A stretch of DNA of 64,000 nucleotides from positions 104,275-168,274 of the forward strand of contig CAVSMG010000019.1 in NCBI GenBank assembly GCA_963728955.1. Reading direction: 5' to 3'. Below, one piece after another: positions 19,615 to 32,308 of this stretch; positions within the stretch are counted from its first letter, which is position 1; every line of letters starts with the position of its first letter. Below the pieces are notes generated by a model. The model searched no databases. It was not told the DNA's origin and saw nothing but the letters and a program-made list of their open reading frames with translations. The stretch is from an uncultured Verrucomicrobiae bacterium (GTDB lineage: Bacteria > Verrucomicrobiota > Verrucomicrobiia > Chthoniobacterales > UBA10450). A program made the translations under genes and the position numbers.

Positions 19615-19741
19615 ATGGGCATTCTACTCGCCGGCTTGTAGACCTCAAAACCTGGATCGATACTACCGGCGTTTGAACGATTCGTGTCTCGGGAAATTGT
19701 TGTTTCGTCTTGGCGTTCTCGGGGACACATTGAAAAGTTCG

Positions 19742-20666
19742 ATGCCGAGACGCACTTACGAATTTGTTCAGGTTGACGTATTCACGCAGACGCCGCTGAC
19801 GGGTAATCCACTGGCTATCTTCAATGATGCTCGGGGATTAAATGATGCCGAGATGCAAGCGTTGGCGCGCGAGATGAATCTTTCGGAGACAACTTTCGTT
19901 TTTCCGCGCGATGCCGCCACTGAAACTCGGGACGGAAAAAAAGTCCGCATCTTCACGGTGGAGGAGGAGTTGCCGTTTGCAGGACATCCGACGCTTGGCA
20001 CGGCGTTGGCCTTGTACGCGTCTGAGTCTGATTCAATCAAACCTGTCCAGATCACCCTTGACTTGAAAGCGGGGAAGATTCCGGTGCGCTTCAGTCCGAA
20101 CCTGGACAATGCCGGCCGTAATCGCGTGGACGGACAGGTGTTCGGGGAAATGCGTCAACGCAATCCGGAAATTCGGAACTACGCTCTCACGAGAGGAGGT
20201 CGCTCGCGTCATTGGAATCGCCGTTGAGGAGATTCCTCCGGAATGGCCAATACAGTCTGTTTCGACAGGATTGACCTTTACGGTTGTGCCGTTCCGCAGT
20301 CAGCAGTCGCTCGGCGGTTTGAAGTTTACTTATGCGCAGGCGGCGGAATTTCTGAAGAAGACCGGTGCTAACTTCTTTTACTTTCTGTGTCCCGAACGGC
20401 GCGAAGACCACCTCGAAGTTCGAGCTCGAATGTTTTTCTATGGTGGGGAAGATCCTGCAACAGGCTCCGCGGCGGGCTGCGCAGCGAGTTGGATGGTCCG
20501 ACACGGAGTCGCCAAGAGTGATGAGCAGGTAGTGATTCGTCAGGGCATCGAGTGCCATCGCGCAAGCGAGATGTATGTCCGGGCAAAGCGGGAAGGGGAG
20601 TGCATCACTGACGTCCGCGTAGGCGGCTATGCCGTTGAAATTCTGCGCGGAACCGTGGTGCTGTGA
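19742..20666 (+). pseudogene. PhzF-family isomerase, one frameshift
   Basis: ORFs 19673-20227 and 20109-20666 together make a full PhzF fold (FVQVDVFT...GNPLAIF ... EDPATGSAAG). The frames rejoin as NPE-FGTTLSREE if one A of GGAAATTC (20169-20171) is removed. Confidence 0.8.
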
Positions 20667-20763: not shown

Positions 20764-22359
20764 ATGGGGGCAGTTCTTCAAGAACCTTGTGACGAAAACG
20801 TAATTCGATCCGGGACGGCGACGGCGCCATGTTCGAAAGTTCGCGGTCGTTGGATTCTCGCCGCAACCGTTCTCGCGTCGAGCATGGCGTTTATCGATGG
20901 GACGGTCGTGAATGTGGCGCTGCCCGCGCTGCAAACGAATCTCAACGCCACGGCGGTGGATGTGCAATGGGTGATCGAGTCGTACGCGCTTTTTCTCTCT
21001 GCATTGCTGCTGGTCGGCGGCTCGTTAGGCGATCATTACGGACGTCGTCGCATCTTTTTGCTGGGTATTGTGATTTTTGCGGTTGCATCGGCGCATGCGG
21101 TCTTGCCGAAAATATTCGTCAATTGATCGTGGCCCGCGCGTTTCAGGGATGTGGCGCGGCACTTCTCGTTCCGGGGAGCCTTGCGATCATCAGTAATTCT
21201 TTCTCCGAGCAGGAACGTGGACGCGCAATTGGAGTATGGTCGGGCTTCAGCGCCATCACTACGGCAATTGGGCCCGTTCTCGGCGGATGGCTGATCGAGC
21301 ACGTTTCATGGCGCGCTGTGTTTTTCATCAATCTTCCGCTGGCCCTTGTTGTGATATTGATCTCGCTCCGCTACGTCGCAGAAAACTCGAACAGAGAACG
21401 GACTCGCGTCGACTGGCTTGGCGCAATCTTGGCCGCACTCGGTTTGGGCGCACTGGTTTACGGATTGATCGAATCCTCCCAAGCCGGTTTTAAGAATCAC
21501 ACAGTGATTATCGTTCTCACGGCAGGCATTGTCGTTTTGATCCTGTTTTTGTTTGTCCAGTTTCGTTTGTCGCAACCAATGTTGCCGCTGGACATTGTTT
21601 CGGTCTCGAACATTCGCCGGAACGAATTTCTTAACGTTTCTGCTTTATGCTGCGCTCGGGGGAACGCTTTTTTTCCTGCCGTTGAATCTGATTCAGGTTC
21701 AGCGCTATTCGCCGACTGCAGCTGGCGCGGCGCTATTGCCGTTCATATTGATCATGTCTTTTCTTTCGCGTTGGTCTGGTGGACTCGTTGCGCATTACGG
21801 TCCCAAGACTTCCGCTTGTCGTTGGACCAGTGATAGCGGCGGTGGGGTATTCGCTTTTCCTGGTGCCTGGGAATCGGGGGCAGTTACTGGACACAATTTT
21901 TTCCAGAGGTGGTTGTTTTGGGCCTGGGCATGGCCATCACCGTAGCGCCACTCACCACGACCGTCATGAGTTCGATCGCGCAAGACCGCGCCGGGATCGC
22001 ATCGGGCGTAAACAATGCCGTGGCGCGGACGGTCGAGCCTGATCGCGATTGCAGTGCTTGGAGTCGTGATGCTCCATGTGTTCAAAACAAATCTGGATCA
22101 CAGATTGAGCACTACGAATTTGCCGGCGTCAGTCGCGCAATCGCTGCAAACTCAATCGATAAAGCTCGCGGCCATCGATATTCCGGAAAATCTTAGCGCG
22201 GGAACACAACAGCTAATCCGTCGGGCAATCAACGAATCATTCGTCTCCGGGTTTCGGTCGGTCATGCTCATTGGGGCCGCGCTCGCCGCTGTAAGCGGAG
22301 TTACTGCGCTGTTTTGGATTAGAGTAACACCGCGCGTGCGCGCTGCTGAGAAAAGCTAA
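20764..22359 (+). pseudogene. MFS transporter (DHA2/EmrB-like, 14-TM type), at least 5 frameshifts
   Basis: Sensible MFS sequence hops through ORFs 20764, 20829, 21553, 21779, 21909 and 22015 (frames 1-0-1-2-0-1). Examples are FIDGTVVNVALPALQ, LIVARAFQGCGAALLVP and [20 protein letters not shown]. Confidence 0.8.
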
Positions 22360-22413: not shown

Positions 22414-22833
22414 TCATGTACGCCCGGAATTATTCGGACTTGAACGGTCCTTCGAAAAATACTCTCGGAAAGCGAACCTCCCCTCTTTGCTTCCGCCCCG
22501 GATGCGCAAACTGCAATGTGCTCGAGGGATGTTTGCCACCAGCAAAGCATTTCGTGGGTCGTGTTCTTCGCACTTTCTCATTTCGAACAGGGCGCGCTCC
22601 CATCTACCTTGGTGGTGATAAGTGCAAGTGAACGGCTCAAGAGCTTGCACATTGTTCGGTTGCAGTTCGAGGGCGCGTCGAAATTCTCTAAAGGCATCGT
22701 CATACTGCCGTTTTCCGAAATAGTAAAAACTACCAAGCGCGATGTGCTCCGCCGCGACTAATCCGGAGAACTCCGATCCGCAAAAGTCTGGGTTTATGGC
22801 CCGGTGCCATCCGCCACTGCCGGCGTTACGCAA
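22414..22833 (-). CDS. TPR-repeat fragment protein (possibly a gene remnant)
   Basis: Two TPR-like units (GSFYYFGKRQYDDAFREFRRALELQPNN; YHHQGRWERALFEMRKCEEHDPRN). It overlaps the upstream AAA+ gene by 40 nt and has no clear N- or C-terminal context. Confidence 0.35.
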   Translation of the reverse strand: MRNAGSGGWHRAINPDFCGSEFSGLVAAEHIALGSFYYFGKRQYDDAFREFRRALELQPNNVQALEPFTCTYHHQGRWERALFEMRKCEEHDPRNALLVANIPRAHCSLRIRGGSKEGRFAFREYFSKDRSSPNNSGRT

Positions 22834-23804
22834 ACATTTCCGTTTTCTACATCGACGCGGACCCGTTTGGCTCCCGATTCCTTCGCGTCGATGAATTGGT
22901 TGGCAAAGAGATCGAACAGGATGCGTTCGAGTTCACGAATACCGAAGCGGCTCACTTTTTCATTTGCCATCAGCGCACGCATGATCAATTCAGGGGCGAC
23001 GAATTGCACTTCCAGTCCATACTCGCGTGCGAGCTTGGAAATTTTTAGAAGTGCAATTTCCGCCACGACCATTCCCGCGAGCGGACGGAAGACATAGACC
23101 TTGTCGATGCGTCCGAGAATTTCGGGCCGGAACACTTTGGCTTCGGCGAGTTCACCTTTTACAGCGTTAAGCATTTCGTGGTAATCGGTCATCTCGGTCT
23201 GGATCTTGCCGATCGCTTCCGCGTGCGCATTACTCGTTAGGATAAAAAGGCATTGTGTGTAGTTCACGGCTTTACCGCTGCCTTGTTCGGTCAGGCGGCC
23301 TTCGCCGAGCAATTGCAGGAAAAGATCGAAGACGGGCGGATACGCCTTTTCAATTTCGTCGAAGAGAATGAGGCGGCGCGGGTTGGCCATGACAGGGCGC
23401 GTGAGTTGGCCGCCTTGTTCGCTGCCGATGTAACCGGTGGGCGTGCCGACGAGGCGTGTCTTCGCTTCTGGTCCGCTCAACTCCGAGCAATCGAAACGCA
23501 GCATTGCGTTTTCGTCCTTAAACAAATATTCCGCGACCGCTTTCGCCAGCTCCGTTTTGCCGGTGCCAGTTGGGCCGAGGAAAAGAAGATTTGCGATCGG
23601 CTTGTCCTTTTGTTTCTTGGCCGCTTGCAAACGAATCAGCTTCGCGACGTCTTCAAGGATCGCGTCCTGACCTTTGACTCGTGAGCGCAAATGTGCGAGC
23701 AGCGCCGCTTCATCGATTTTTGTGCCGGTGGTTTCGTCCGCCTTTTTCTCCAGCATCGCCTTGAGCTGGTTCCAGTCGGTCATGTTTTCGATTGGGTCCG
23801 CCAT
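22794..23804 (-). CDS. Soluble AAA+ ATPase, ClpA/ClpB D2-module-like
   Basis: GQDAILEDV..., Walker A GPTGTGKT, pore-loop-like GTPTGYIGSEQGG, Walker B RLILFDEIEKA, sensor-1 FILTSN, and sensor-2-like FGIRELERI. Confidence 0.85.
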   Translation of the reverse strand: MADPIENMTDWNQLKAMLEKKADETTGTKIDEAALLAHLRSRVKGQDAILEDVAKLIRLQAAKKQKDKPIANLLFLGPTGTGKTELAKAVAEYLFKDENAMLRFDCSELSGPEAKTRLVGTPTGYIGSEQGGQLTRPVMANPRRLILFDEIEKAYPPVFDLFLQLLGEGRLTEQGSGKAVNYTQCLFILTSNAHAEAIGKIQTEMTDYHEMLNAVKGELAEAKVFRPEILGRIDKVYVFRPLAGMVVAEIALLKISKLAREYGLEVQFVAPELIMRALMANEKVSRFGIRELERILFDLFANQFIDAKESGAKRVRVDVENGNVCVTPAVADGTGP

Positions 23805-23863
23805 GGTCGTAAGGTTAATCCCACTTAAATCGTGAGCTAGCTCGAAATTTTCAGCTGTTGCTC

Positions 23864-25600
23864 TCAGCGCTCCAAGCGCACGGTTCCGCCCGATTCGTGC
23901 CAGGTGTTTTGCTTATTACCTCCTAGAAAGCCGCCTTTCATCACCAGCAGCGCACCGCGGCAGGCGCCCACACCGAAAACGGAATTCCCGCGGACGGTGC
24001 AGTTGCTCAGAAAAACCGATCCTCGTTTTTGCGGGTCGTTAGGCAAACCGGCCTGGGCGCCGCGCGTCGTTGCTTCCATCGTGCACCCGGATGCCGTGAT
24101 CGTGGCGCCGAGGTTCGCGTCCAATCCCATGGACTTGCAGCCGGTAATCGTACTGTTCGTTATTTTTCCCTGAGACCCGCTGTCCTGCACTTCGACGCCG
24201 ACGACGTCGCTATTGGCGACCTGGCAAGATTCCATGTCCAATTGGCTGCCGCTCCTAACGAAGATGGCGTCGCCATGGGCGCCGTTGATGTGTACATTAT
24301 TCAATACCGCCTGGGCGGCAGAAGTATTGGCAAAGCCAAGTGAGAGCGCGCTGAGATTCGAGTTCGTGATCGTCGTCTCCACCATTTTTAGATTCGCGCC
24401 GCCGCTCACATTGAAAGCATCGTTGAGCGAATCCGAAATCGTGGAACCCATCACAGTTACGGTCGTGCCCTGATCGTTGGCGCCCACCGCGTTGCAGTAG
24501 GATTTTAATTTCTGATTCTCCGTCACGAGTCCTGTCCGGCGCATTTGGGCGCGCTCGAGAAGGAGACTGCTGCCGGCGAGCGCGACAAGCCCCTGGCGAT
24601 TGTCTTCGAAAACGTTGTCCTTAAGGGAAACTCTCGAGCCATGCTGCGCGCAGATCATTCCCCAGCTTGTATTCTCTCCTTCGCCGGTAACGCCGTTGTT
24701 GCGAAAAGTGCTGCCGGTCAAATGCAGCGTGCCTCCTTCGTCGGCCATGATCGTTGCGGTATTGCCATCGAATTGACAGGCATCGAGCGTGAGCGACGCG
24801 CGACCGACCACGCCAAGCGTAAGACCGAGTCCGTTAACGAGTCCGATTTGCTGGAACGAGCAACTGCTTCCCTGCACTTGCGCCGCATTGATCACTTCCA
24901 ATCCCCAACGGCCCGCGAGAAAACTACAATGATTGAGTGTGCCCTGCGCAGTGCCTTGATACTTCAAGCAACAGCCGGCGTTGACAGCGCGAAACTGCGT
25001 TCCTTGCGCGGTGAGCGACGCACTTTCGCTGACCAAAATCCCAAACTTGCTTTGCGTGGTCATTGCGCAATTCGTCATTTCAACGGCTGCCTCGCGCGAA
25101 ATTTGCACGGCAGGAGAATCGCCCGCCGCTTCAAAACTCAGCGAGACGTTTTCGAATCCTACTTTCTTTCCGGAAATCGTAAGTCCGGCTCGCTGCGCAT
25201 CGACTCCGCGAATAGTCGCAACGCCTTTTCCCGAAGCCGGTCCGACGAAACGTGCGCTGACGTTCACTTCGAAATTACCGGTGTAGGTTCCCGCTCGCAG
25301 ATTCACCACATCGCCGTCGGACAAACTTGCCGCCACGGTTTCAATGTCACCGTTATCGGCATCGCGCGCGCCCGAAGAATCGACGATCCATTGTCCGCGC
25401 TTTTTCGCTTTTATTTTCGTGATTGCCTGCCGTGAAACACGTGCCAAAGGTGAAGGGCCTGGCATCGGCGTTCCGTTACCGCCGACAATATCCGAACCTG
25501 GTTTCTGCGTAATATTATAAATCATCACGCCGCCGGAGAGCGCCGCCACGAGCAGGCACAATTGAAACCACTGGTTTTGCAGCAGAGCGCGCCAGTTCAT
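23864..25600 (-). CDS. Membrane-anchored right-handed parallel beta-helix repeat protein
   Basis: N-terminal TM (WFQLCLLVAALSGGVMIY) followed by about 500 aa of PbH1-like repeats rich in G/N/S/T-x-hydrophobic rungs (for example NCAMTT..., NHCSFLA..., STFRNNG..., SNCTVRGN). The start overlaps the stop of the upstream gene (TAATG). Confidence 0.8.
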   Translation of the reverse strand: MNWRALLQNQWFQLCLLVAALSGGVMIYNITQKPGSDIVGGNGTPMPGPSPLARVSRQAITKIKAKKRGQWIVDSSGARDADNGDIETVAASLSDGDVVNLRAGTYTGNFEVNVSARFVGPASGKGVATIRGVDAQRAGLTISGKKVGFENVSLSFEAAGDSPAVQISREAAVEMTNCAMTTQSKFGILVSESASLTAQGTQFRAVNAGCCLKYQGTAQGTLNHCSFLAGRWGLEVINAAQVQGSSCSFQQIGLVNGLGLTLGVVGRASLTLDACQFDGNTATIMADEGGTLHLTGSTFRNNGVTGEGENTSWGMICAQHGSRVSLKDNVFEDNRQGLVALAGSSLLLERAQMRRTGLVTENQKLKSYCNAVGANDQGTTVTVMGSTISDSLNDAFNVSGGANLKMVETTITNSNLSALSLGFANTSAAQAVLNNVHINGAHGDAIFVRSGSQLDMESCQVANSDVVGVEVQDSGSQGKITNSTITGCKSMGLDANLGATITASGCTMEATTRGAQAGLPNDPQKRGSVFLSNCTVRGNSVFGVGACRGALLVMKGGFLGGNKQNTWHESGGTVRLER

Positions 25601-26760
25601 TATTCTGGCGCGACCGAAATTTCGAGATTGCCATTGGCGCCGACGATCAAATCTACTTTCTTCACGCCGCGCGCGCGTGCCTGGCCGATGGCCGCGCTTG
25701 TTTTCATCTGCACGTAAGCGCCGAGTTGGCGCACGCCGTATTGCTTAAATTCTTCATTGCGTTGCACGGCGTCGAGGATCAACTCCGGCGCCGCGTGTTT
25801 GATCTCGATTCCGTAAGTGCGCCAATGACGCGCGAGTTGCAGGCACGCAACCTCCGCAACGTGTAGCGGCGAAAGTTCGTCCATGAAATAAATCGCCGAC
25901 CAGCGTGCCAGAAACGCGCGGTCGAATCCGGCTGCGTCCACGAGAGCATCGCGACTTTGTCCGAGCCAACTAACAGGATCGGGTTTTCCATCGCGGCGCA
26001 ATGCGCGCAAAGCTTCAACACCAGCGTTGCAGGTCGCAAAAAAAACGCAGCCGCTAAAATCCACGGTGCGTCCCGAACTTTTTTCGCGGCAACTCGCTGT
26101 GTCCAGAATGTCATAAAGACAATGCTGCAAATCGCGGTGCGCTTTTTCCAATTCGTCGAAAATAATGACGCGCCGCGGATTTTCCAGCACCGGCCGCGTG
26201 AGCGTGCCGCCAACTTCATATCCCGGAGTGCCCGGCGGCGGACCGATCAACGTGAAAACATCGTCGCCATGTTTGTATTGATTCATCCGCAGAATGATCG
26301 GCTCCGATTCGGGATAAACCGCCTCAGCGATGAGCTGGCCGAGAAAAGTTTTTCCGGTGCCTGTTGGCCCAACGAGAAAAAAAGCGCCCAGGGTTCGTCC
26401 CGGAGTTGCGAGCGCAAGATTGGCCTGCAACTCAGCCAGAATCGAATCGACCGTTTCATCCTGACCGCGCACATTTTCCTTCAACCACGGTGCGAACGAA
26501 CTGAGATTGGTCGTCGCAAGTTGCGTGTAATCGAGTGCCTTCGCTTCTGCTTTCTCGGCGTTCCACTGCTGCCACGCCAGCCAGCCCATTCCGGCTAGCG
26601 CCGCGAAGAAAAATAACGGCGCGAAAGCATGACTCGCTTTGTTCAGTCCGAAAATGGCGCCGGCGATGGTGATCGCGAGCATCACCAGCAAATAAGGGTT
26701 TTTCAAAATCTCTTCGTGGCTTTCGCGCTTCACGATCTTGATCACGCGGCCCGGTTGCAT
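25600..26760 (-). CDS. Membrane-anchored AAA+ ATPase, ClpB D2-module-like, with two N-terminal TM helices
   Basis: TM helices (YLLVMLAITIAGAIFGL; FAPLFFFAALAGMGWLAW) precede RGQDETVDSI, Walker A GPTGTGKT, GPPPGTPGYEVGG, Walker B RVIIFDELEKA, FFATCN and YGVRQLGAY. Confidence 0.85.
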   Translation of the reverse strand: MQPGRVIKIVKRESHEEILKNPYLLVMLAITIAGAIFGLNKASHAFAPLFFFAALAGMGWLAWQQWNAEKAEAKALDYTQLATTNLSSFAPWLKENVRGQDETVDSILAELQANLALATPGRTLGAFFLVGPTGTGKTFLGQLIAEAVYPESEPIILRMNQYKHGDDVFTLIGPPPGTPGYEVGGTLTRPVLENPRRVIIFDELEKAHRDLQHCLYDILDTASCREKSSGRTVDFSGCVFFATCNAGVEALRALRRDGKPDPVSWLGQSRDALVDAAGFDRAFLARWSAIYFMDELSPLHVAEVACLQLARHWRTYGIEIKHAAPELILDAVQRNEEFKQYGVRQLGAYVQMKTSAAIGQARARGVKKVDLIVGANGNLEISVAPE

Positions 26761-26762
26761 AT

Positions 26763-27485
26763 TTATCGCGCGATTACCTCCAGGTCGGCGCTGTCACCCG
26801 CGGCCATTGGTCGCGTCGTAACAACGCCGCCGTTGACCGATTTCACCCAGCAACTCACCACACCGTTCGGTCCCGCTTGTTCGGCTGTGAAATGAAAATG
26901 AGTCGGCGCGCCCGGTCCGGCCGGAAACGTCGTGCCCTGCGGCCGTTCCGCTGTTAGCAAATCTTCGCCCAGAAAAACGCCGCCACTCGAAACGCGTGCG
27001 TGCACAAGAATGCCGCTCTGGTTTTGTTGGAGGAGACGTTTTGTGTAGAGACTCTCTTTGCCGGAAAGAATGTTCTGACGCGTCGCGGCGTCCGCATTTG
27101 CCAGTACCGGCGGAATTTCTCCACGTGCCAATGCTGCGCGCGCAGCATCGGTCGCGGCGTAGTCGATATCGGCTGGAGTCAAAGTCAGGATCTGCTCCTG
27201 CTGCACCGCAGTCCACGGGTGCATCCAATGGGGCAGCACTTCTTGCTTCCAAACAAATCCGGAAACAAGCGCCGCCGCAATGAATGCAACCGCCAGTAAA
27301 CGCATGCGCCTTTTCTTTCTGCTGCTCGTTACCGGCGGTGTGGCGCCGATCTGCGGTTTTTCCGTATAAGCTTTTCCGCGCGTCCTGACTCCGGAATCTG
27401 CAATTCCGCGTGCACGCGTGCCCGGATCCAGATGCGCCCCGCGCCGTATTTCCGGTTCCAACGGATCAGGATTCGACTCCATCAT
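26763..27485 (-). CDS. Hypothetical single-pass membrane protein, first gene of the AAA+/beta-helix cassette
   Basis: 240-aa ORF with a charged N-region, a TM (LLAVAFIAAALVSGFVW) and a 160-aa extracytoplasmic domain. It ends 2 nt before the next gene's start. Confidence 0.6.
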   Translation of the reverse strand: MMESNPDPLEPEIRRGAHLDPGTRARGIADSGVRTRGKAYTEKPQIGATPPVTSSRKKRRMRLLAVAFIAAALVSGFVWKQEVLPHWMHPWTAVQQEQILTLTPADIDYAATDAARAALARGEIPPVLANADAATRQNILSGKESLYTKRLLQQNQSGILVHARVSSGGVFLGEDLLTAERPQGTTFPAGPGAPTHFHFTAEQAGPNGVVSCWVKSVNGGVVTTRPMAAGDSADLEVIAR

Positions 27486-27899
27486 TTGGAGCCAATGGAA
27501 TATCCTGTGCAGGATTGGATTTCAATAAAAAACCCGAGCATCTCCATGATTCAAAGATTCAATGTTGTTCGCGAGGGCGAATATCTTTTACGCCGAGCTT
27601 GTCAGGACTAAGATGGTTGGCGGAGTTCAGCGGTTAGATGCACGATAAGAAACGGCTCAATAGGAGTACTGCCTTTCGAACTTCACTGCCATTGATCATT
27701 GTAATCTCATCAGCCATTCTCGCGCATTTGCAACGTCGGCCGTCGTTAGCTCGACTGTTCTTTCTCCTGCGTTTCAACAAGAAATGAGCGTGCTGGTCTT
27801 CAGATGCCAAACTGATCCATGAAACAGAGCCACGCATCGCCGCAAAGGACGGCAGACTCGGAGTTAATGGTGCGACAGATTTTTAAAGAGCGGGTTTTG

Positions 27900-30847: not shown

Positions 30848-32308
30848 CTAGTGCAGCTTCACATTCTCCCAATGGATCTGAATCGCGTTCCAGGCCGTCC
30901 CACAAAAATCCAGTTCTTGGTATTGATAGTTGAAGGCCACGTTACCCTGGGCATCGAGGCCAACGAGGCCGGTATAAACATACGGGCCGCCAAGGGTGTA
31001 ATCGATGAGGTAGTTATCCGCCGCATCTTCATACACGCTACTGCAGAACGGGCTATAAACACTCGGGTCAGGGTAATAATGCCAGGTCTCAGTCGCCTCA
31101 AAAGCATTGAGATCGATCTGATATTTGCGAGGCGCGCTGTAGGTGCGTGTTTCTCCCGGCGGTTGCTGGAAATTACTGCCAGCGCCATCATCGAAAAGGA
31201 GTAATTGATCGCCTGGCATAGACACAGCATGCTGCCCGATCGGCGGCAATGTGCCCGGGGCCAGGGTGAGAGAGAATGCACGCAGCGACGGAAACTCATA
31301 CCAGTGCTTTGTCGGATCCCCCAGGATCCACTTAATGTTTCCAGAGTCGTAATCAATTGCGATGACGAAATTTTCCCGGCTGGAAACGATGAGTGAGTTA
31401 TCAGAGCTGCGGTAGGCAGTGGCGTTGTTGTGGAACCAATCGGTGGGCGCGGGATAGACGAACAGGCTTGGATCATCCCCCCCAGCAATCATGGCGGCAC
31501 TGATGATGTCTGCAAGCTTCCAGGTCCGGAGCACATTGCCGGCGGCGTCGACCTCCAGATTGACGCTCTCAGTCTGATCGACGGTATCGACATCGAGAAT
31601 CATTCCCTCGCGGCCCGGGTCGATGTTGTGATGGAAGCCGGTGACACCAATACCGCTGTAGTCAGCAACAGGTGTTGTCACCCCATCGAACTCAGTGCGA
31701 AGAAGGGAGGTGCCGGAAGTGACGTAGAATGCATTGTCGAAGAGGATGCAGTTCTGCGCGCCTACTCCCGCCGTGCCGACCCATCGGATTTCGGCGTCAC
31801 TGTCAATAATGATGGGCGTGTTAGGATCGGCGTAGCTCTTCAGCAGGATGAAGTCGTAGCTCAGGGTAGTGCCTGGTAACCGTGATTGAACGACGGTTGG
31901 ATTGGAATACGTACCTCCGTCATAGGCTGGCGTCGTGATGGCGACGCCGAACCGGTCAATTCGACTGCTAAAATCTAAACTGATCTTTATGCGGTTTTGG
32001 CGGCCGGCGTAGAGACCGAAAACCGGGATGGTGAGATTGCCATTCTGAGAATTGAAATAGCCCCGTGATTCCAAATACGATCGCGCATAGCGGGCCTTGA
32101 CTGGCCGTGCAGCTGACCCCGTTTTCGGCTGAATTCGGAACTGGGCGAACTGGAAGCCCGCAACATCACTGACCTGGGTATTGACAAAGCGGATGAATGG
32201 CGTTGGACCTTCGGACACCTGAATATTTCCAACTACCCGGTCGGGCTGAGCCGCAATTGAAAGCACGGACAGGAGAGCGACTACGGGGGTAATCAATCGT
32301 GAGTTCAT
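30848..32308 (-). CDS. Arylsulfotransferase (ASST) family beta-propeller protein, secreted
   Basis: Signal peptide, then DWFHNNATAY, SSRENFVIAIDYDSGNIKWILGDP and QHAVSM...LLLFDDG, which match the pattern I recall for ASST. Confidence 0.7.
   Translation of the reverse strand: MNSRLITPVVALLSVLSIAAQPDRVVGNIQVSEGPTPFIRFVNTQVSDVAGFQFAQFRIQPKTGSAARPVKARYARSYLESRGYFNSQNGNLTIPVFGLYAGRQNRIKISLDFSSRIDRFGVAITTPAYDGGTYSNPTVVQSRLPGTTLSYDFILLKSYADPNTPIIIDSDAEIRWVGTAGVGAQNCILFDNAFYVTSGTSLLRTEFDGVTTPVADYSGIGVTGFHHNIDPGREGMILDVDTVDQTESVNLEVDAAGNVLRTWKLADIISAAMIAGGDDPSLFVYPAPTDWFHNNATAYRSSDNSLIVSSRENFVIAIDYDSGNIKWILGDPTKHWYEFPSLRAFSLTLAPGTLPPIGQHAVSMPGDQLLLFDDGAGSNFQQPPGETRTYSAPRKYQIDLNAFEATETWHYYPDPSVYSPFCSSVYEDAADNYLIDYTLGGPYVYTGLVGLDAQGNVAFNYQYQELDFCGTAWNAIQIHWENVKLH

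Follow-up and report, generated by a model that had tools for sequence, protein, structure and literature searches.

What could four close-set genes, two of them encoding Hsp100-type ATPases and two encoding anchored membrane proteins, do together in a soil Verrucomicrobium? The genes, A to D, occupy the minus strand of a 64,000-nucleotide stretch of DNA (the window; Table 1), and reading of the sequence finds all four intact. A first-pass annotation had proposed a membrane-associated unfoldase pair that acts on, or exports and anchors, a beta-helix protein, and it is partly supported by the present analysis.

Coordinates and junctions, read again directly, agree with the spacing first described. 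The A/B junction is TAA-AT-ATG with a gap of 2 nt, B and C overlap by 1 nt in TAATG, and 59 nt separate C from D; A, B and C are translationally coupled. Frameshifts interrupt the adjoining PhzF and MFS genes but leave the cassette whole, an intactness that had been noticed. The AT-richer stretch upstream of A (47.3% GC versus 56.3% for the cassette) is likewise borne out and is presumed to be the promoter region of A, in which a promoter scan found neither a sigma-70-like site nor a convincing terminator and Rfam gave zero matches. The TPR open reading frame at 22414-22833, which shares 40 nt with the end of D, is a local remnant outside the system.

Table 1. Features of the four-gene cassette, in window positions
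Feature	Positions	Strand	Basis or description
Gene A	26763-27485	-	ORF, 240 aa
Gene B	25600-26760	-	ORF, 386 aa
Gene C	23864-25600	-	ORF, 578 aa
Gene D	22794-23804	-	ORF, 336 aa
Intergenic region upstream of A, 414 bp	27486-27899	-	47.3% GC
Tail motif of A, K38-A-Y40-T-E-K-P44	27354-27374	-	A-family alignment
TM helix of A, residues 61-79	27249-27305	-	Kyte-Doolittle hydropathy; AF2 helix 57-77
Two-helix membrane hairpin of B, residues ~24-63	26572-26691	-	Hydropathy; alignment A1
Pore-loop segment of B, GPPPGTPGYEVGG, residues 173-185	26206-26244	-	HMMER alignment to E. coli ClpB 4d2q
WFQ anchor of C, MNWRALLQNQWFQLCLLVAALSGGVMIYN	25511-25600	-	~10-residue tail and TM helix; alignment A3
Beta-helix domain of C, residues 70-578	23867-25393	-	AF2 model
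Pore loop of D, GTPTGYIGSEQGG	23409-23447	-	Alignment to ClpC

Searches with B located 79 genome loci, 65 of which gave near-full-length calls for both B and D. The quartet, whose co-conservation had been made the test of the original proposal, occurs in at least six phyla, well beyond the PVC group (Verrucomicrobiota, Elusimicrobiota, Planctomycetota, Gemmatimonadota, Bdellovibrionota and others), always in uncultured MAGs, and independent gene calls concur. Two gene orders are found, A-B-C-D and D-A-B-C, so that D either follows C or precedes A. The start of B is overlapped or directly adjoined by an A-like gene, with an A homologue immediately 5' of B in most loci, and an anchor-bearing gene begins 8-50 nt past the B stop. 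D lies within 2.8 kb in nearly all loci with enough flank; the exceptions are L011, where it is 5.1 kb away, L013, where it is inverted, and L017, where B and a C-type gene occur but D is missing from ~8 kb on the upstream and 6.7 kb on the downstream side. Nothing among curated protein families, defence models or published descriptions accounts for the cassette, and profile, PADLOC and literature searches linked it to none of the named secretion, defence or chaperone systems; the first-pass annotation had likewise made no match. Given this recurrence as one unit across phyla and the lack of a matching described system, the cassette looks like an uncharacterised ATP-driven inner-membrane machine.

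The cassette is native rather than mobile, as evidenced by housekeeping flanks that differ from lineage to lineage, a GC content equal to that of the genome, and its near-absence from viral contigs. These observations bear on a possible anti-phage or conflict system, in which C would serve as a sensor, variable and placed at the surface or in the periplasm, and in which the ClpB-like ATPases would be effectors, a role proposed for DolB of Dodola or the candidate PDC-M37. Such a role is suggested by PADLOC matches to PDC-M37B (E 6e-16 for B, 5e-30 for D) and DolB (E 1e-10 and 7.5e-19), by a sensor-like domain that is variable and multiplied, and by a patchy spread over phyla. The matches are, however, limited to the generic AAA+ core, and A and C match no PADLOC defence model, leaving the DolA or PDC-M37A partner absent. 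The neighbourhood check found housekeeping flanks in place of the defence or accessory island that had been considered, native GC, and all four genes in most Udaeobacter-like close relatives (L001-L010, L018), and the cassette carries no nuclease, protease or toxin effector. A defence function is accordingly quite improbable.

By sequence, B and D are single-module ATPases of the ClpB/ClpC D2 type with complete catalytic motifs, as had been recognised. Both match Pfam AAA_2 (E 7.8e-25 for B, 3.3e-43 for D), and their PDB relatives are the D2 module of ClpC/ClpB for B (E ~1e-31) and ClpC/ClpB for D (E ~1e-52). In NCBIfam, B matches the D2 region of ClpV, ClpB and ClpA with scores far under the cut-offs, and D matches region 561-851 of the ClpB family TIGR03346 at 218.7 bits against a cut-off of 1232. 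Walker A, Walker B, the sensor-1 Asn, the Arg finger and the sensor-2 Arg are present in both proteins at all 65 loci, R286 of B occupying the position of ClpB R756. Neither protein has a ClpP-docking loop (IGF/VGF), and the alignment of D to ClpC is gapped precisely there, which places the pair closer to ClpB-type unfoldases than to protease partners. No substrate-binding N-domain was found in either by Pfam or NCBIfam. B has more than 500 homologous clusters, and 102 relatives among 185,579 species genomes. D, which has no TM helix by hydropathy, is the most conserved part of the cassette. Identity to the D of the window is 90-99% at L001-L009 and L018, which are Udaeobacter-like, and 56-82% outside these close relatives. 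Pairwise identities of B and D co-vary (r = 0.89 over 65 loci; none of 500 permutations as high), and the two genes appear to be co-inherited.

The two rings differ at the pore. A pore-loop Tyr had been reported for both; this stands for D, in which Y125 aligns with the canonical GYVG Tyr of ClpC and an aromatic is retained at 65 of 65 loci (60 Tyr, 5 Phe). In B, an HMMER alignment to 4d2q with residue counting places the Tyr of GTPGYEVGG (Y181) at the position of ClpB Tyr656. The position of Tyr653, the canonical substrate-gripping residue, is filled by T178, so the canonical aromatic is lost, and across the 65 loci residue 178 is unconstrained (Met 16, Ser 15, Tyr 11, Ala 7). Because that Tyr is missing, the suggestion that both ATPases thread polypeptide is not upheld for B.

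B also carries a membrane hairpin. The two N-terminal TM helices described earlier are recovered by hydropathy at residues ~24-42 and 45-63, joined by a short, conserved outer loop (GLNKxSxxFAP) in which N40 and P48 are invariant (alignment A1). Since the hairpin precedes the AAA+ module, and the direction of Hsp100 translocation is known, the entry face of the B ring would be turned toward the membrane. This polarity bears on export, an idea of the first-pass annotation. In one form of it, the ATPases would unfold C and drive it over the inner membrane by way of a channel that the TM helices of A and B provide. An Hsp100-powered translocon has a precedent in PTEX HSP101 of Plasmodium, which is among the PDB relatives of B and D, and C-type proteins share a conserved N-terminal "signal". 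An anchor on the entry side, however, would drive translocation away from the membrane, fitting a pull out of the bilayer rather than a push into it; moreover, the C anchor resembles an ordinary Sec/YidC signal-anchor, and the cassette encodes no channel former. Export of C is therefore very unlikely.

A is a single-pass protein with an outer domain that had been called unrecognisable. An AF2 model shows a disordered tail (residues 1-59), one TM helix, a brief helical stretch and a beta-sandwich of Ig-like type (~145-239). Pfam, NCBIfam and PADLOC returned zero matches, and a Foldseek search of the PDB gave nothing under E 0.02, leaving the outer domain without a structural counterpart. Five Lys or Arg residues precede the TM helix and one follows it, indicating an N-in orientation; judged from this charge pattern, the tail is cytosolic and the Ig-like domain clearly outside the cytoplasm. 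A homologues are rare, with only 73 matching clusters among 1.84 billion representatives. Within the tail, K38, Y40 and P44 are invariant in the A-family alignment A2, and the consensus (G/A/S)AY[TVISY]x[LP]P (in short form AY[TVI]x[LP]P), located 10-25 residues N-terminal to the TM helix, is common to Verrucomicrobiota, Elusimicrobiota, Planctomycetota and Gemmatimonadota. A short Elusimicrobiota protein, c17, carries PYTPLP.

C was described as a TM anchor followed by a beta-helix, and this holds: hydropathy places its TM helix at residues 12-30, Pfam Beta_helix matches at E 4.3e-31, and the AF2 model is a long right-handed parallel beta-helix (pLDDT 88.3). The anchor is the part that persists. 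It is near-invariant in alignment A3 even where overall identity is 27-49%, and it stands at the head of the gene that follows B in Verrucomicrobiota, Planctomycetota, Gemmatimonadota, Elusimicrobiota and Bdellovibrionota, as well as in Proteobacteria/Binataceae MAGs and one WWE3 bin. An Ala/Pro-rich linker separates it from the outer domain, which in other lineages consists of Sel1 repeats or a PSII_BNR (BNR/Ycf48-type) propeller instead of a beta-helix, and some loci have 2-4 tandem copies of the anchor-bearing gene. Because the beta-helix is swapped while the anchor is kept, it is the anchor around which any model has to be built. What survives from the original hypothesis is that the ATPases and C are functionally linked, as supported by a C gene that always starts at or just after the B stop and by conservation of the anchor across phyla, but the beta-helix itself is not the conserved element.

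The beta-helix also invites a simpler reading, in which a polysaccharide lyase or hydrolase is linked by chance to generic chaperones. The top Foldseek matches of C are indeed PL6 alginate lyases, AlgG and GH87, with NosD (7o0y) also among them, but with ~10% identity and poor TM-scores all of them reflect no more than the generic beta-helix fold. No Asp, Glu, Lys, Arg or His is invariant in the helix body in the family alignment, and from these two observations the domain appears to be non-catalytic. Exchange of the beta-helix for Sel1 or BNR domains with the remaining cassette unchanged, and linkage kept over at least six phyla, also oppose chance association, and the lyase-operon reading is strongly disfavoured.

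The explanation we favour, tentatively, is a dedicated four-part inner-membrane motor that pulls or dislocates A and C by their membrane-proximal parts. The hairpin would hold B at the membrane with its entry face toward the bilayer, and soluble D, with its canonical gripping loop, would pair with B in a mixed ring or as a stacked second tier. A and C would be the membrane partners, A supplying its ~60-residue disordered cytosolic tail and conserved motif as a handle for AAA+ binding or threading, and C acting as the "client", with its WFQ anchor, spacer and exchangeable solenoid or propeller domain. ATP hydrolysis would pull from the cytoplasmic side on the membrane-proximal parts of both, dislocating or remodelling them to control their display, assembly state or turnover. 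We infer the four-protein complex, the direction of pull, the identity of the threaded protein and the periplasmic location of the C domain. Several observations sit poorly with such a motor: the cytosolic tail of C, only ~10 residues, gives an AAA+ pore little to engage, the cassette encodes no protease or other downstream effector, and L017 keeps B and a C-type gene without a nearby D.

The tail of C, arguably too short for threading, would be better explained if nothing were unfolded. The membrane-bound ATPase pair would instead go through conformational cycles, and force transmitted along the A, B and C TM helices would turn a periplasmic C domain on and off. This would follow the logic of FtsEX-EnvC, MacB/LolCDE, NosDFY or TonB-ExbBD with an AAA+ ring as the power source. 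High conservation of the B and C TM segments and of the outer loop of the B hairpin is consistent with such coupling, as are the unconstrained pore position of B, the resemblance of the C spacer to periplasm-spanning linkers, the NosD structure among the fold matches and a weak NosD-type signature that Pfam gives for C. On the other hand, a pure conformational switch has no need of the threading loop that D keeps at every one of the 65 loci, and the long, motif-bearing tail of A resembles a threading or binding handle. To our knowledge, all characterised Hsp100 D2 modules act by polypeptide translocation. Force transmission without unfolding is thus somewhat unlikely.

The pulling motor places the C outer domain on the far side of the membrane, where it probably lies, in the periplasm. 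Lys and Arg average 1.5 on each side of 63 C anchors, and in several anchors from Elusimicrobiota the N-tail is acidic and basic residues follow the helix, so charge bias leaves the orientation unsettled and the large domain could be cytoplasmic. In that N-out/C-in arrangement, the cassette would be a membrane-tethered disaggregase or quality-control system with interchangeable adaptors, the C solenoid recruiting substrates. The ankyrin repeats of Skd3/CLPB recruit substrate and offer a model for C as an adaptor to rings that, like B and D, have no N-domain; Skd3, with a single D2-type ring and repeat domains, is among their PDB relatives. This arrangement is nonetheless unlikely: it leaves the Ig-like domain of A partnerless outside the cytoplasm, a cytosolic adaptor requires neither an Ala/Pro-rich spacer nor a strictly conserved TM helix, and Beta_helix/NosD-like, BNR/Ycf48-like and bacterial Sel1 domains are usually extracytoplasmic.

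Among known systems, B and D align with the D2 modules of ClpB, ClpC and Hsp104 over the entire large and small subdomains and all catalytic motifs. Like ClpB they have no ClpP-docking loop, D has a GYVG-type pore Tyr, and like Skd3/CLPB each has one AAA+ ring per protein. They differ in having no D1 module, N-domain or middle domain, in scoring far under the ClpB, ClpA and ClpV cut-offs, and in pairing two paralogous single-module ATPases, one hairpin-anchored with an unconstrained pore position. Dodola (DolA/DolB) and PDC-M37 also use a stand-alone ClpB-D2-like ATPase, but the cassette shares only the AAA+ core with them, not the partners or the defence-island context. Torsin with LAP1/LULL1 resembles B in its D2-related AAA+ module, N-terminal hydrophobic membrane segment, loss of the canonical pore aromatic and membrane-protein partner; Torsin Pfam matches are weak (20-22 bits against a cut-off of 27), and B has its own Arg finger, which Torsin does not, and must keep its ATPase domain in the cytoplasm, whereas that of Torsin is lumenal.

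Msp1/ATAD1, FtsH and Cdc48 at Hrd1-Sel1L likewise hold a ring by an N-terminal TM segment, entry face to the bilayer, with single-pass partners, and the Sel1-repeat C-type proteins of some lineages recall Sel1L/Hrd3 on the far side of the membrane in ERAD. The resemblance to these extractors would be only architectural, as the cassette ATPases belong to the Hsp100 D2 clade rather than the classical or FtsH clade, and no protease domain, ubiquitin system or retrotranslocation channel accompanies them. Although its energy source is an AAA+ pair rather than proton-motive force or an ABC ATPase, C scores only 24.8 bits against an NCBIfam NosD cut-off of 300, and it has no homologues of NosF/NosY, ExbB/ExbD or FtsE/FtsX, the cassette also resembles TonB-ExbBD, FtsEX-EnvC and NosDFY in that a cytoplasmic or membrane energy source would act by way of conserved TM helices on a protein facing the periplasm, here with a TonB-like Pro-rich spacer or a NosD-like beta-helix in C. 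A single motor that can serve several interchangeable, TonB-like clients would be a further likeness.

The four genes called in the region are intact and packed tightly on the minus strand, with gaps as described in the first-pass annotation, in a stretch where frameshifts break their neighbours. A and C encode single-pass membrane proteins, and B and D encode a membrane-anchored and a soluble AAA+ ATPase, respectively. As read off the sequence, the A/B junction is TAA-AT-ATG, a 2-nt gap; the B/C junction is TAATG, a 1-nt overlap; and a spacer of 59 nt separates C from D. GC content is 47.3% in the 414 bp upstream of A, 55.5% in the whole window and 56.3% in the cassette, whose value is that of the surrounding genome. 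Scanning the region for promoters and terminators and searching it against Rfam gave no usable result. The nearest homologues occur in Candidatus Udaeobacter and Chthoniobacterales metagenome-assembled genomes (MAGs).

Among the neighbours, a PhzF-family gene is split by a frameshift or sequencing error, and an MFS transporter gene is likewise spread over several ORFs. A TPR ORF shares 40 nt with the 3' end of D. It matches only an 84-aa ORF of the closest relative (locus L008) and has the appearance of a remnant or of a small gene specific to the lineage; the conserved cassette does not include it. A nearby gene of the arylsulfotransferase (ASST) family, whose product has an N-terminal signal-like sequence, appears unrelated to the cassette.

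Coordinates of the cassette genes, their neighbours and related genes at other loci
Feature	Sequence	Position	Strand	Length	Remarks
A	window	26763-27485	-	240 aa	ORF call
B	window	25600-26760	-	386 aa	ORF call
C	window	23864-25600	-	578 aa	ORF call
D	window	22794-23804	-	336 aa	ORF call
PhzF-family gene	window	19673-20666	+		two overlapping ORFs (PF02567 positions 1-103 and 124-279)
MFS transporter	window	20764-22359	+		at least 3-4 ORFs in different frames; MFS_1 matches 20764-21126 and 20829-21833
TPR ORF	window	22414-22833	-	139 aa	TTG start
ASST-family gene	window	30848-32308	-
~303-aa soluble protein	L015	10578-11486
~303-aa soluble protein	L017	11709-12623
~303-aa soluble protein	L080	10202-11113
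Two genes replacing A	L056	6760-7668 and 7670-7990

The co-conservation in other genomes on which the first-pass proposal was made to depend is found across several phyla. A search of 185,579 species-level genomes with a profile of B gave 102 relatives; the loci retrieved number 79. Carriers include Verrucomicrobiota (Chthoniobacterales, Udaeobacter), many Elusimicrobiota, Gemmatimonadota, Planctomycetota (Pirellulales, Thermoguttaceae, Lacipirellulaceae) and Bdellovibrionota (Oligoflexia, Bacteriovoracaceae), together with one Proteobacteria MAG, one Binataceae MAG and one WWE3 bin. A D orthologue lies no more than 2.8 kb from B at nearly every locus with enough flank, the exceptions being L011 (5.1 kb), L013 (inverted) and L017 (none). 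Setting aside the close relatives of the window, these orthologues are 56-82% identical to the window D. Most lineages keep the order A-B-C-D; in Planctomycetota, Gemmatimonadota and the Proteobacteria MAG it is D-A-B-C. Because A abuts or overlaps B at most loci, commonly by 4 nt, and the gene after B starts 8-50 nt from the B stop codon, A, B and C form a translationally coupled core, with D as a mobile fourth member. The rival reading of the cassette as a chance operon has to be set against the co-divergence of B and D, whose pairwise identities correlate with r = 0.89, a value reached in none of 500 permutations. The flanking genes are ordinary metabolic and regulatory genes that differ by lineage.

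Several loci depart from the common layout. L017 has B and a Sel1-type C, with no D within ~8 kb upstream or 6.7 kb downstream of B. Some Verrucomicrobiota-like cassettes carry, after the Sel1-type C gene(s) and ahead of D, a soluble protein of ~303 aa; it has no match in Pfam or NCBIfam, its L080 and L015 copies are 58% identical, and it may be an accessory component. Certain MAGs hold two cassettes on different contigs with different C-type domains (L040/L041, L042/L046, L011/L075, L004/L017). A complete B-C-D cassette (L045) lies in a bin of candidate division WWE3 (CPR), where it is unexpected, and the bin may be contaminated. The long "B" ORFs of 625-674 aa at some high-GC loci were considered as A-B fusions and rejected; since separate A ORFs exist, they reflect over-extension through A in another frame. 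A phage origin was likewise rejected, because a scan of viral contigs (IMG/VR) gave one true relative, L080, the other matches being generic Clp proteins. L080 (IMGVR_UViG_3300035696_000096) bears a complete cassette, A-B-C-Sel1-303aa-D, on a putatively viral contig that is possibly a misclassified host fragment.

Both ATPases score well above the 27-bit gathering threshold of Pfam AAA_2 (PF07724), the Clp/Hsp100 D2-type AAA+ domain (B, 88.3 bits, E 7.8e-25; D, 148 bits, E 3.3e-43), and among solved structures they come closest to the D2 rings of ClpC and ClpB. On these matches the motors are assigned to the AAA_2/Hsp100 D2 family. Across 65 loci, the Walker A motif, Walker B Asp-Glu, sensor-1 Asn, Arg finger and sensor-2 Arg are kept in B and D essentially without exception, so both are predicted to be competent ATPases. 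A residue count on the HMMER alignment to Escherichia coli ClpB places invariant R286 of B at the ClpB Arg finger, R756, and the idea of a B without an Arg finger was rejected on this basis.

The two ATPases differ at the pore. In a canonical threading pore, pore loop 1 of the Hsp100 D2 ring (GYVG) carries an aromatic residue where E. coli ClpB has Tyr653. D has one at all 65 loci (Tyr at 60, Phe at 5), and its GYIG aligns to the GYVG of ClpC. In B the position is unconstrained (M16/S15/Y11/A7 and others at the 65 loci); the same residue count matches T178 of the window protein to the substrate-gripping Y653 and Y181 to Y656. The earlier proposal of a pore-loop tyrosine in both proteins therefore stands for D and fails for B at the canonical position. 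By hydropathy, B has two N-terminal transmembrane helices (~24-42 and 45-63) with a short conserved loop between them, and D has none. From its sequence D looks like a canonical threading motor, and its paralogue B is anchored in the membrane and has a relaxed pore. A rival reading, mechanotransmission without unfolding, would sit easily with the pore of B and less easily with that of D.

Protein A has no match in Pfam, NCBIfam or PADLOC. Its AlphaFold2 model consists of a disordered tail (residues 1-59), a transmembrane helix, a short helical piece and a beta-sandwich (pLDDT ~85-90). For the model, Foldseek returned nothing below E 0.02 in the PDB and only generic Ig-like folds. Five Lys/Arg residues precede the helix and one follows it, a charge bias that clearly puts the tail in the cytoplasm and the Ig-like domain beyond the membrane. 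Within the tail, K38, Y40 and P44 are invariant in the A-family alignment, and the short motif they belong to, (G/A/S)AY[TVISY]x[LP]P, lies 10-25 residues N-terminal to the helix in Verrucomicrobiota, Elusimicrobiota, Planctomycetota and Gemmatimonadota. The motif recurs in a short 105-aa protein (c17) that replaces A in some Elusimicrobiota. A profile search of 1.84 billion representatives found the A family to be small (73 clusters), with no bridge to a known family. In one Elusimicrobiota group (L047-L057 and L071), two genes stand in place of A: one of ~105 aa keeps the tail motif (PYTPLP) and the transmembrane helix, and the other, of ~305 aa, encodes a single-pass protein with a different C-terminal beta domain. 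This group also has an extra Sel1 protein after D.

The AlphaFold2 model of C (pLDDT 88.3) shows an N-terminal helix (residues 3-30) connected by a disordered linker to an uninterrupted right-handed beta-helix, in keeping with 108.1 bits over four stretches to Pfam Beta_helix (PF13229; cut-off 25.9). Foldseek matches are generic at ~10% identity (PL6 lyases, phage tail proteins, AlgG, GH87, NosD and pertactin), with a best E of 7e-7 and TM-scores of 0.2-0.6. Among 18 homologues, the invariant residues of the beta-helix body are Gly, Asn, Cys and hydrophobics, and no Asp, Glu, Lys, Arg or His is invariant in residues 143-578, which argues against C as an enzyme. A polysaccharide lyase or hydrolase of PL6, GH87 or AlgG type was rejected, as the fold matches are generic, no catalytic-type residue is invariant and Sel1 or BNR domains replace the beta-helix elsewhere. 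A NosDFY system would have a NosD above 300 bits (TIGR04247) with adjacent NosF/NosY ABC genes; C scores 24.8 bits, and the cassette holds no ABC genes. The Pfam NosD match (24.7 bits, just over the 23.6 cut-off) is a generic CASH/beta-helix signal.

The conserved part of C is its anchor. Residues 1-22 are almost invariant among the 18 homologues, and in all phyla the gene after B encodes a short tail, (D/N)xW[FVI]Q and a hydrophobic helix, in many cases with SGG..IYN at its end, followed by an Ala/Pro-rich spacer (A 21%, P 15%). The outer domain is a beta-helix in Verrucomicrobiota, Elusimicrobiota and Oligoflexia, a Sel1 array of up to 22 repeats in Planctomycetota and some Verrucomicrobiota, and a PSII_BNR/Ycf48-type propeller in Gemmatimonadota. 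Several loci (L038, L041, L042, L028, L059, L162) carry two to four tandem anchor-bearing paralogues. A fixed adjacent motor, a conserved anchor and a swappable, multipliable domain are typical of a machine's dedicated clients. The first suggestion thus holds in part: it survives in a dedicated pair of membrane unfoldases linked to C, with the anchor in place of the beta-helix as the conserved feature. Across 63 anchors, Lys and Arg average 1.5 on each side, a neutral charge bias that leaves room for a rival in which C faces the cytoplasm as a substrate adaptor. Beta-helix/NosD-like, BNR and bacterial Sel1 domains are usually extracytoplasmic; this usual location and the partner it would provide for the outer domain of A are the two grounds for placing the C domain in the periplasm.

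The model we prefer, although tentatively and as somewhat short of probable, is that A, B and C join through their transmembrane segments into an inner-membrane complex to which D would be added at B, either within one mixed ring or stacked as another tier. The motor would pull membrane-proximal handles from the cytoplasmic side, the long motif-bearing tail of A being the best candidate for engagement and the C anchor the conserved target, and pulling would dislocate or remodel the anchored proteins. Hsp100 rings translocate from the N-terminal to the C-terminal face. With the B anchor at the N terminus, the entry face would point towards the membrane, as in FtsH and Msp1; by this analogy with established AAA+ proteins, pulling or extraction is favoured and export disfavoured. 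The original idea that the ATPases export C is accordingly unlikely, and the same polarity weighs on the rival model of a PTEX-like exporter.

In comparison with named families, B and D align at ~560-850 of the models for ClpB, ClpA and ClpV and score 120-220 bits (cut-offs 885-1417). Against ClpB (TIGR03346/PRK10865; cut-off 1232) D scores 218.7 and B 121.7 bits over model positions ~561-851 only; full-length ClpB comprises an N-domain, D1, a middle domain and D2, whereas B and D are only 386 and 336 aa. ClpV/TssH (TIGR03345) calls for more than 884.95 bits and a type VI secretion context; B and D reach 135.9 and 160.2 bits in the D2 region only, and neither the window flanks nor the related loci hold T6SS genes. 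The ClpP-docking loop (IGF/IGL/VGF) of ClpA/ClpC/ClpX-type partners is absent from both, D having a 7-residue gap opposite the ...nkyVGFn... loop of Bacillus subtilis ClpC and B no such tripeptide at the aligned site. Torsin (PF06309; threshold 27) matches the Walker A region only, at 20.2 (B) and 22.5 bits (D). A defence system, a further rival, draws on two PADLOC matches: the DolB model fits the AAA+ cores of B and D, and PDC-M37B, of the candidate system PDC-M37, matches over ~117-300 of 390. Dodola, however, requires a DolA (DUF6414-type) partner adjoining DolB, and A and C match no PADLOC model; PDC-M37 requires both components, and no cassette protein matches PDC-M37A. With all four proteins and the partners from other phyla, Pfam, NCBIfam and PADLOC left A unmatched and gave generic domains for the rest, and no paper on the cassette was found in the literature searched. 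The initial failure to match a named secretion, defence or chaperone system is thus confirmed by these databases, Foldseek and the literature.

As a candidate for an AAA+ envelope system yet to be described, the cassette is well supported. Known Hsp100 unfoldases are soluble and either act as double-ring disaggregases or partner proteases; to our knowledge, it is new for two single-ring D2-type ATPases to be conserved as a pair, with one of them anchored in the membrane and single-pass proteins as dedicated partners. We also know of no ATP-driven AAA+ system in bacteria that works from the cytoplasm on proteins facing the periplasm, a gap that such a motor, if real, might fill as a new energy route to the periplasm. 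Candidatus Udaeobacter, not yet cultivable, is among the most abundant soil bacteria, and retention of the cassette in its streamlined genomes suggests a core envelope function in that lineage. The C anchor and the A tail motif offer short, testable biochemical targets. A bolder reading, which we consider less likely than not but realistic, is that the envelope machine belongs to a class so far unrecognized, in which an Hsp100 motor divided between two ATPases would sit on the inner membrane and pull on a dedicated family of WFQ-anchored periplasmic solenoid proteins. By analogy, such a class could be an AAA+-powered counterpart of TonB/FtsEX force transduction, or a bacterial dislocase of ERAD type, with Sel1, propeller or beta-helix receptors in the periplasm passing proteins to a cytoplasmic unfoldase. 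The nearest analogues by architecture, none of which has a component in common with the cassette, form two groups: the membrane-anchored AAA+ extractors Msp1, FtsH and Cdc48 at the Sel1L-Hrd1 complex, and TonB-ExbBD, FtsEX-EnvC and NosDFY, inner-membrane motors that actuate periplasmic proteins.
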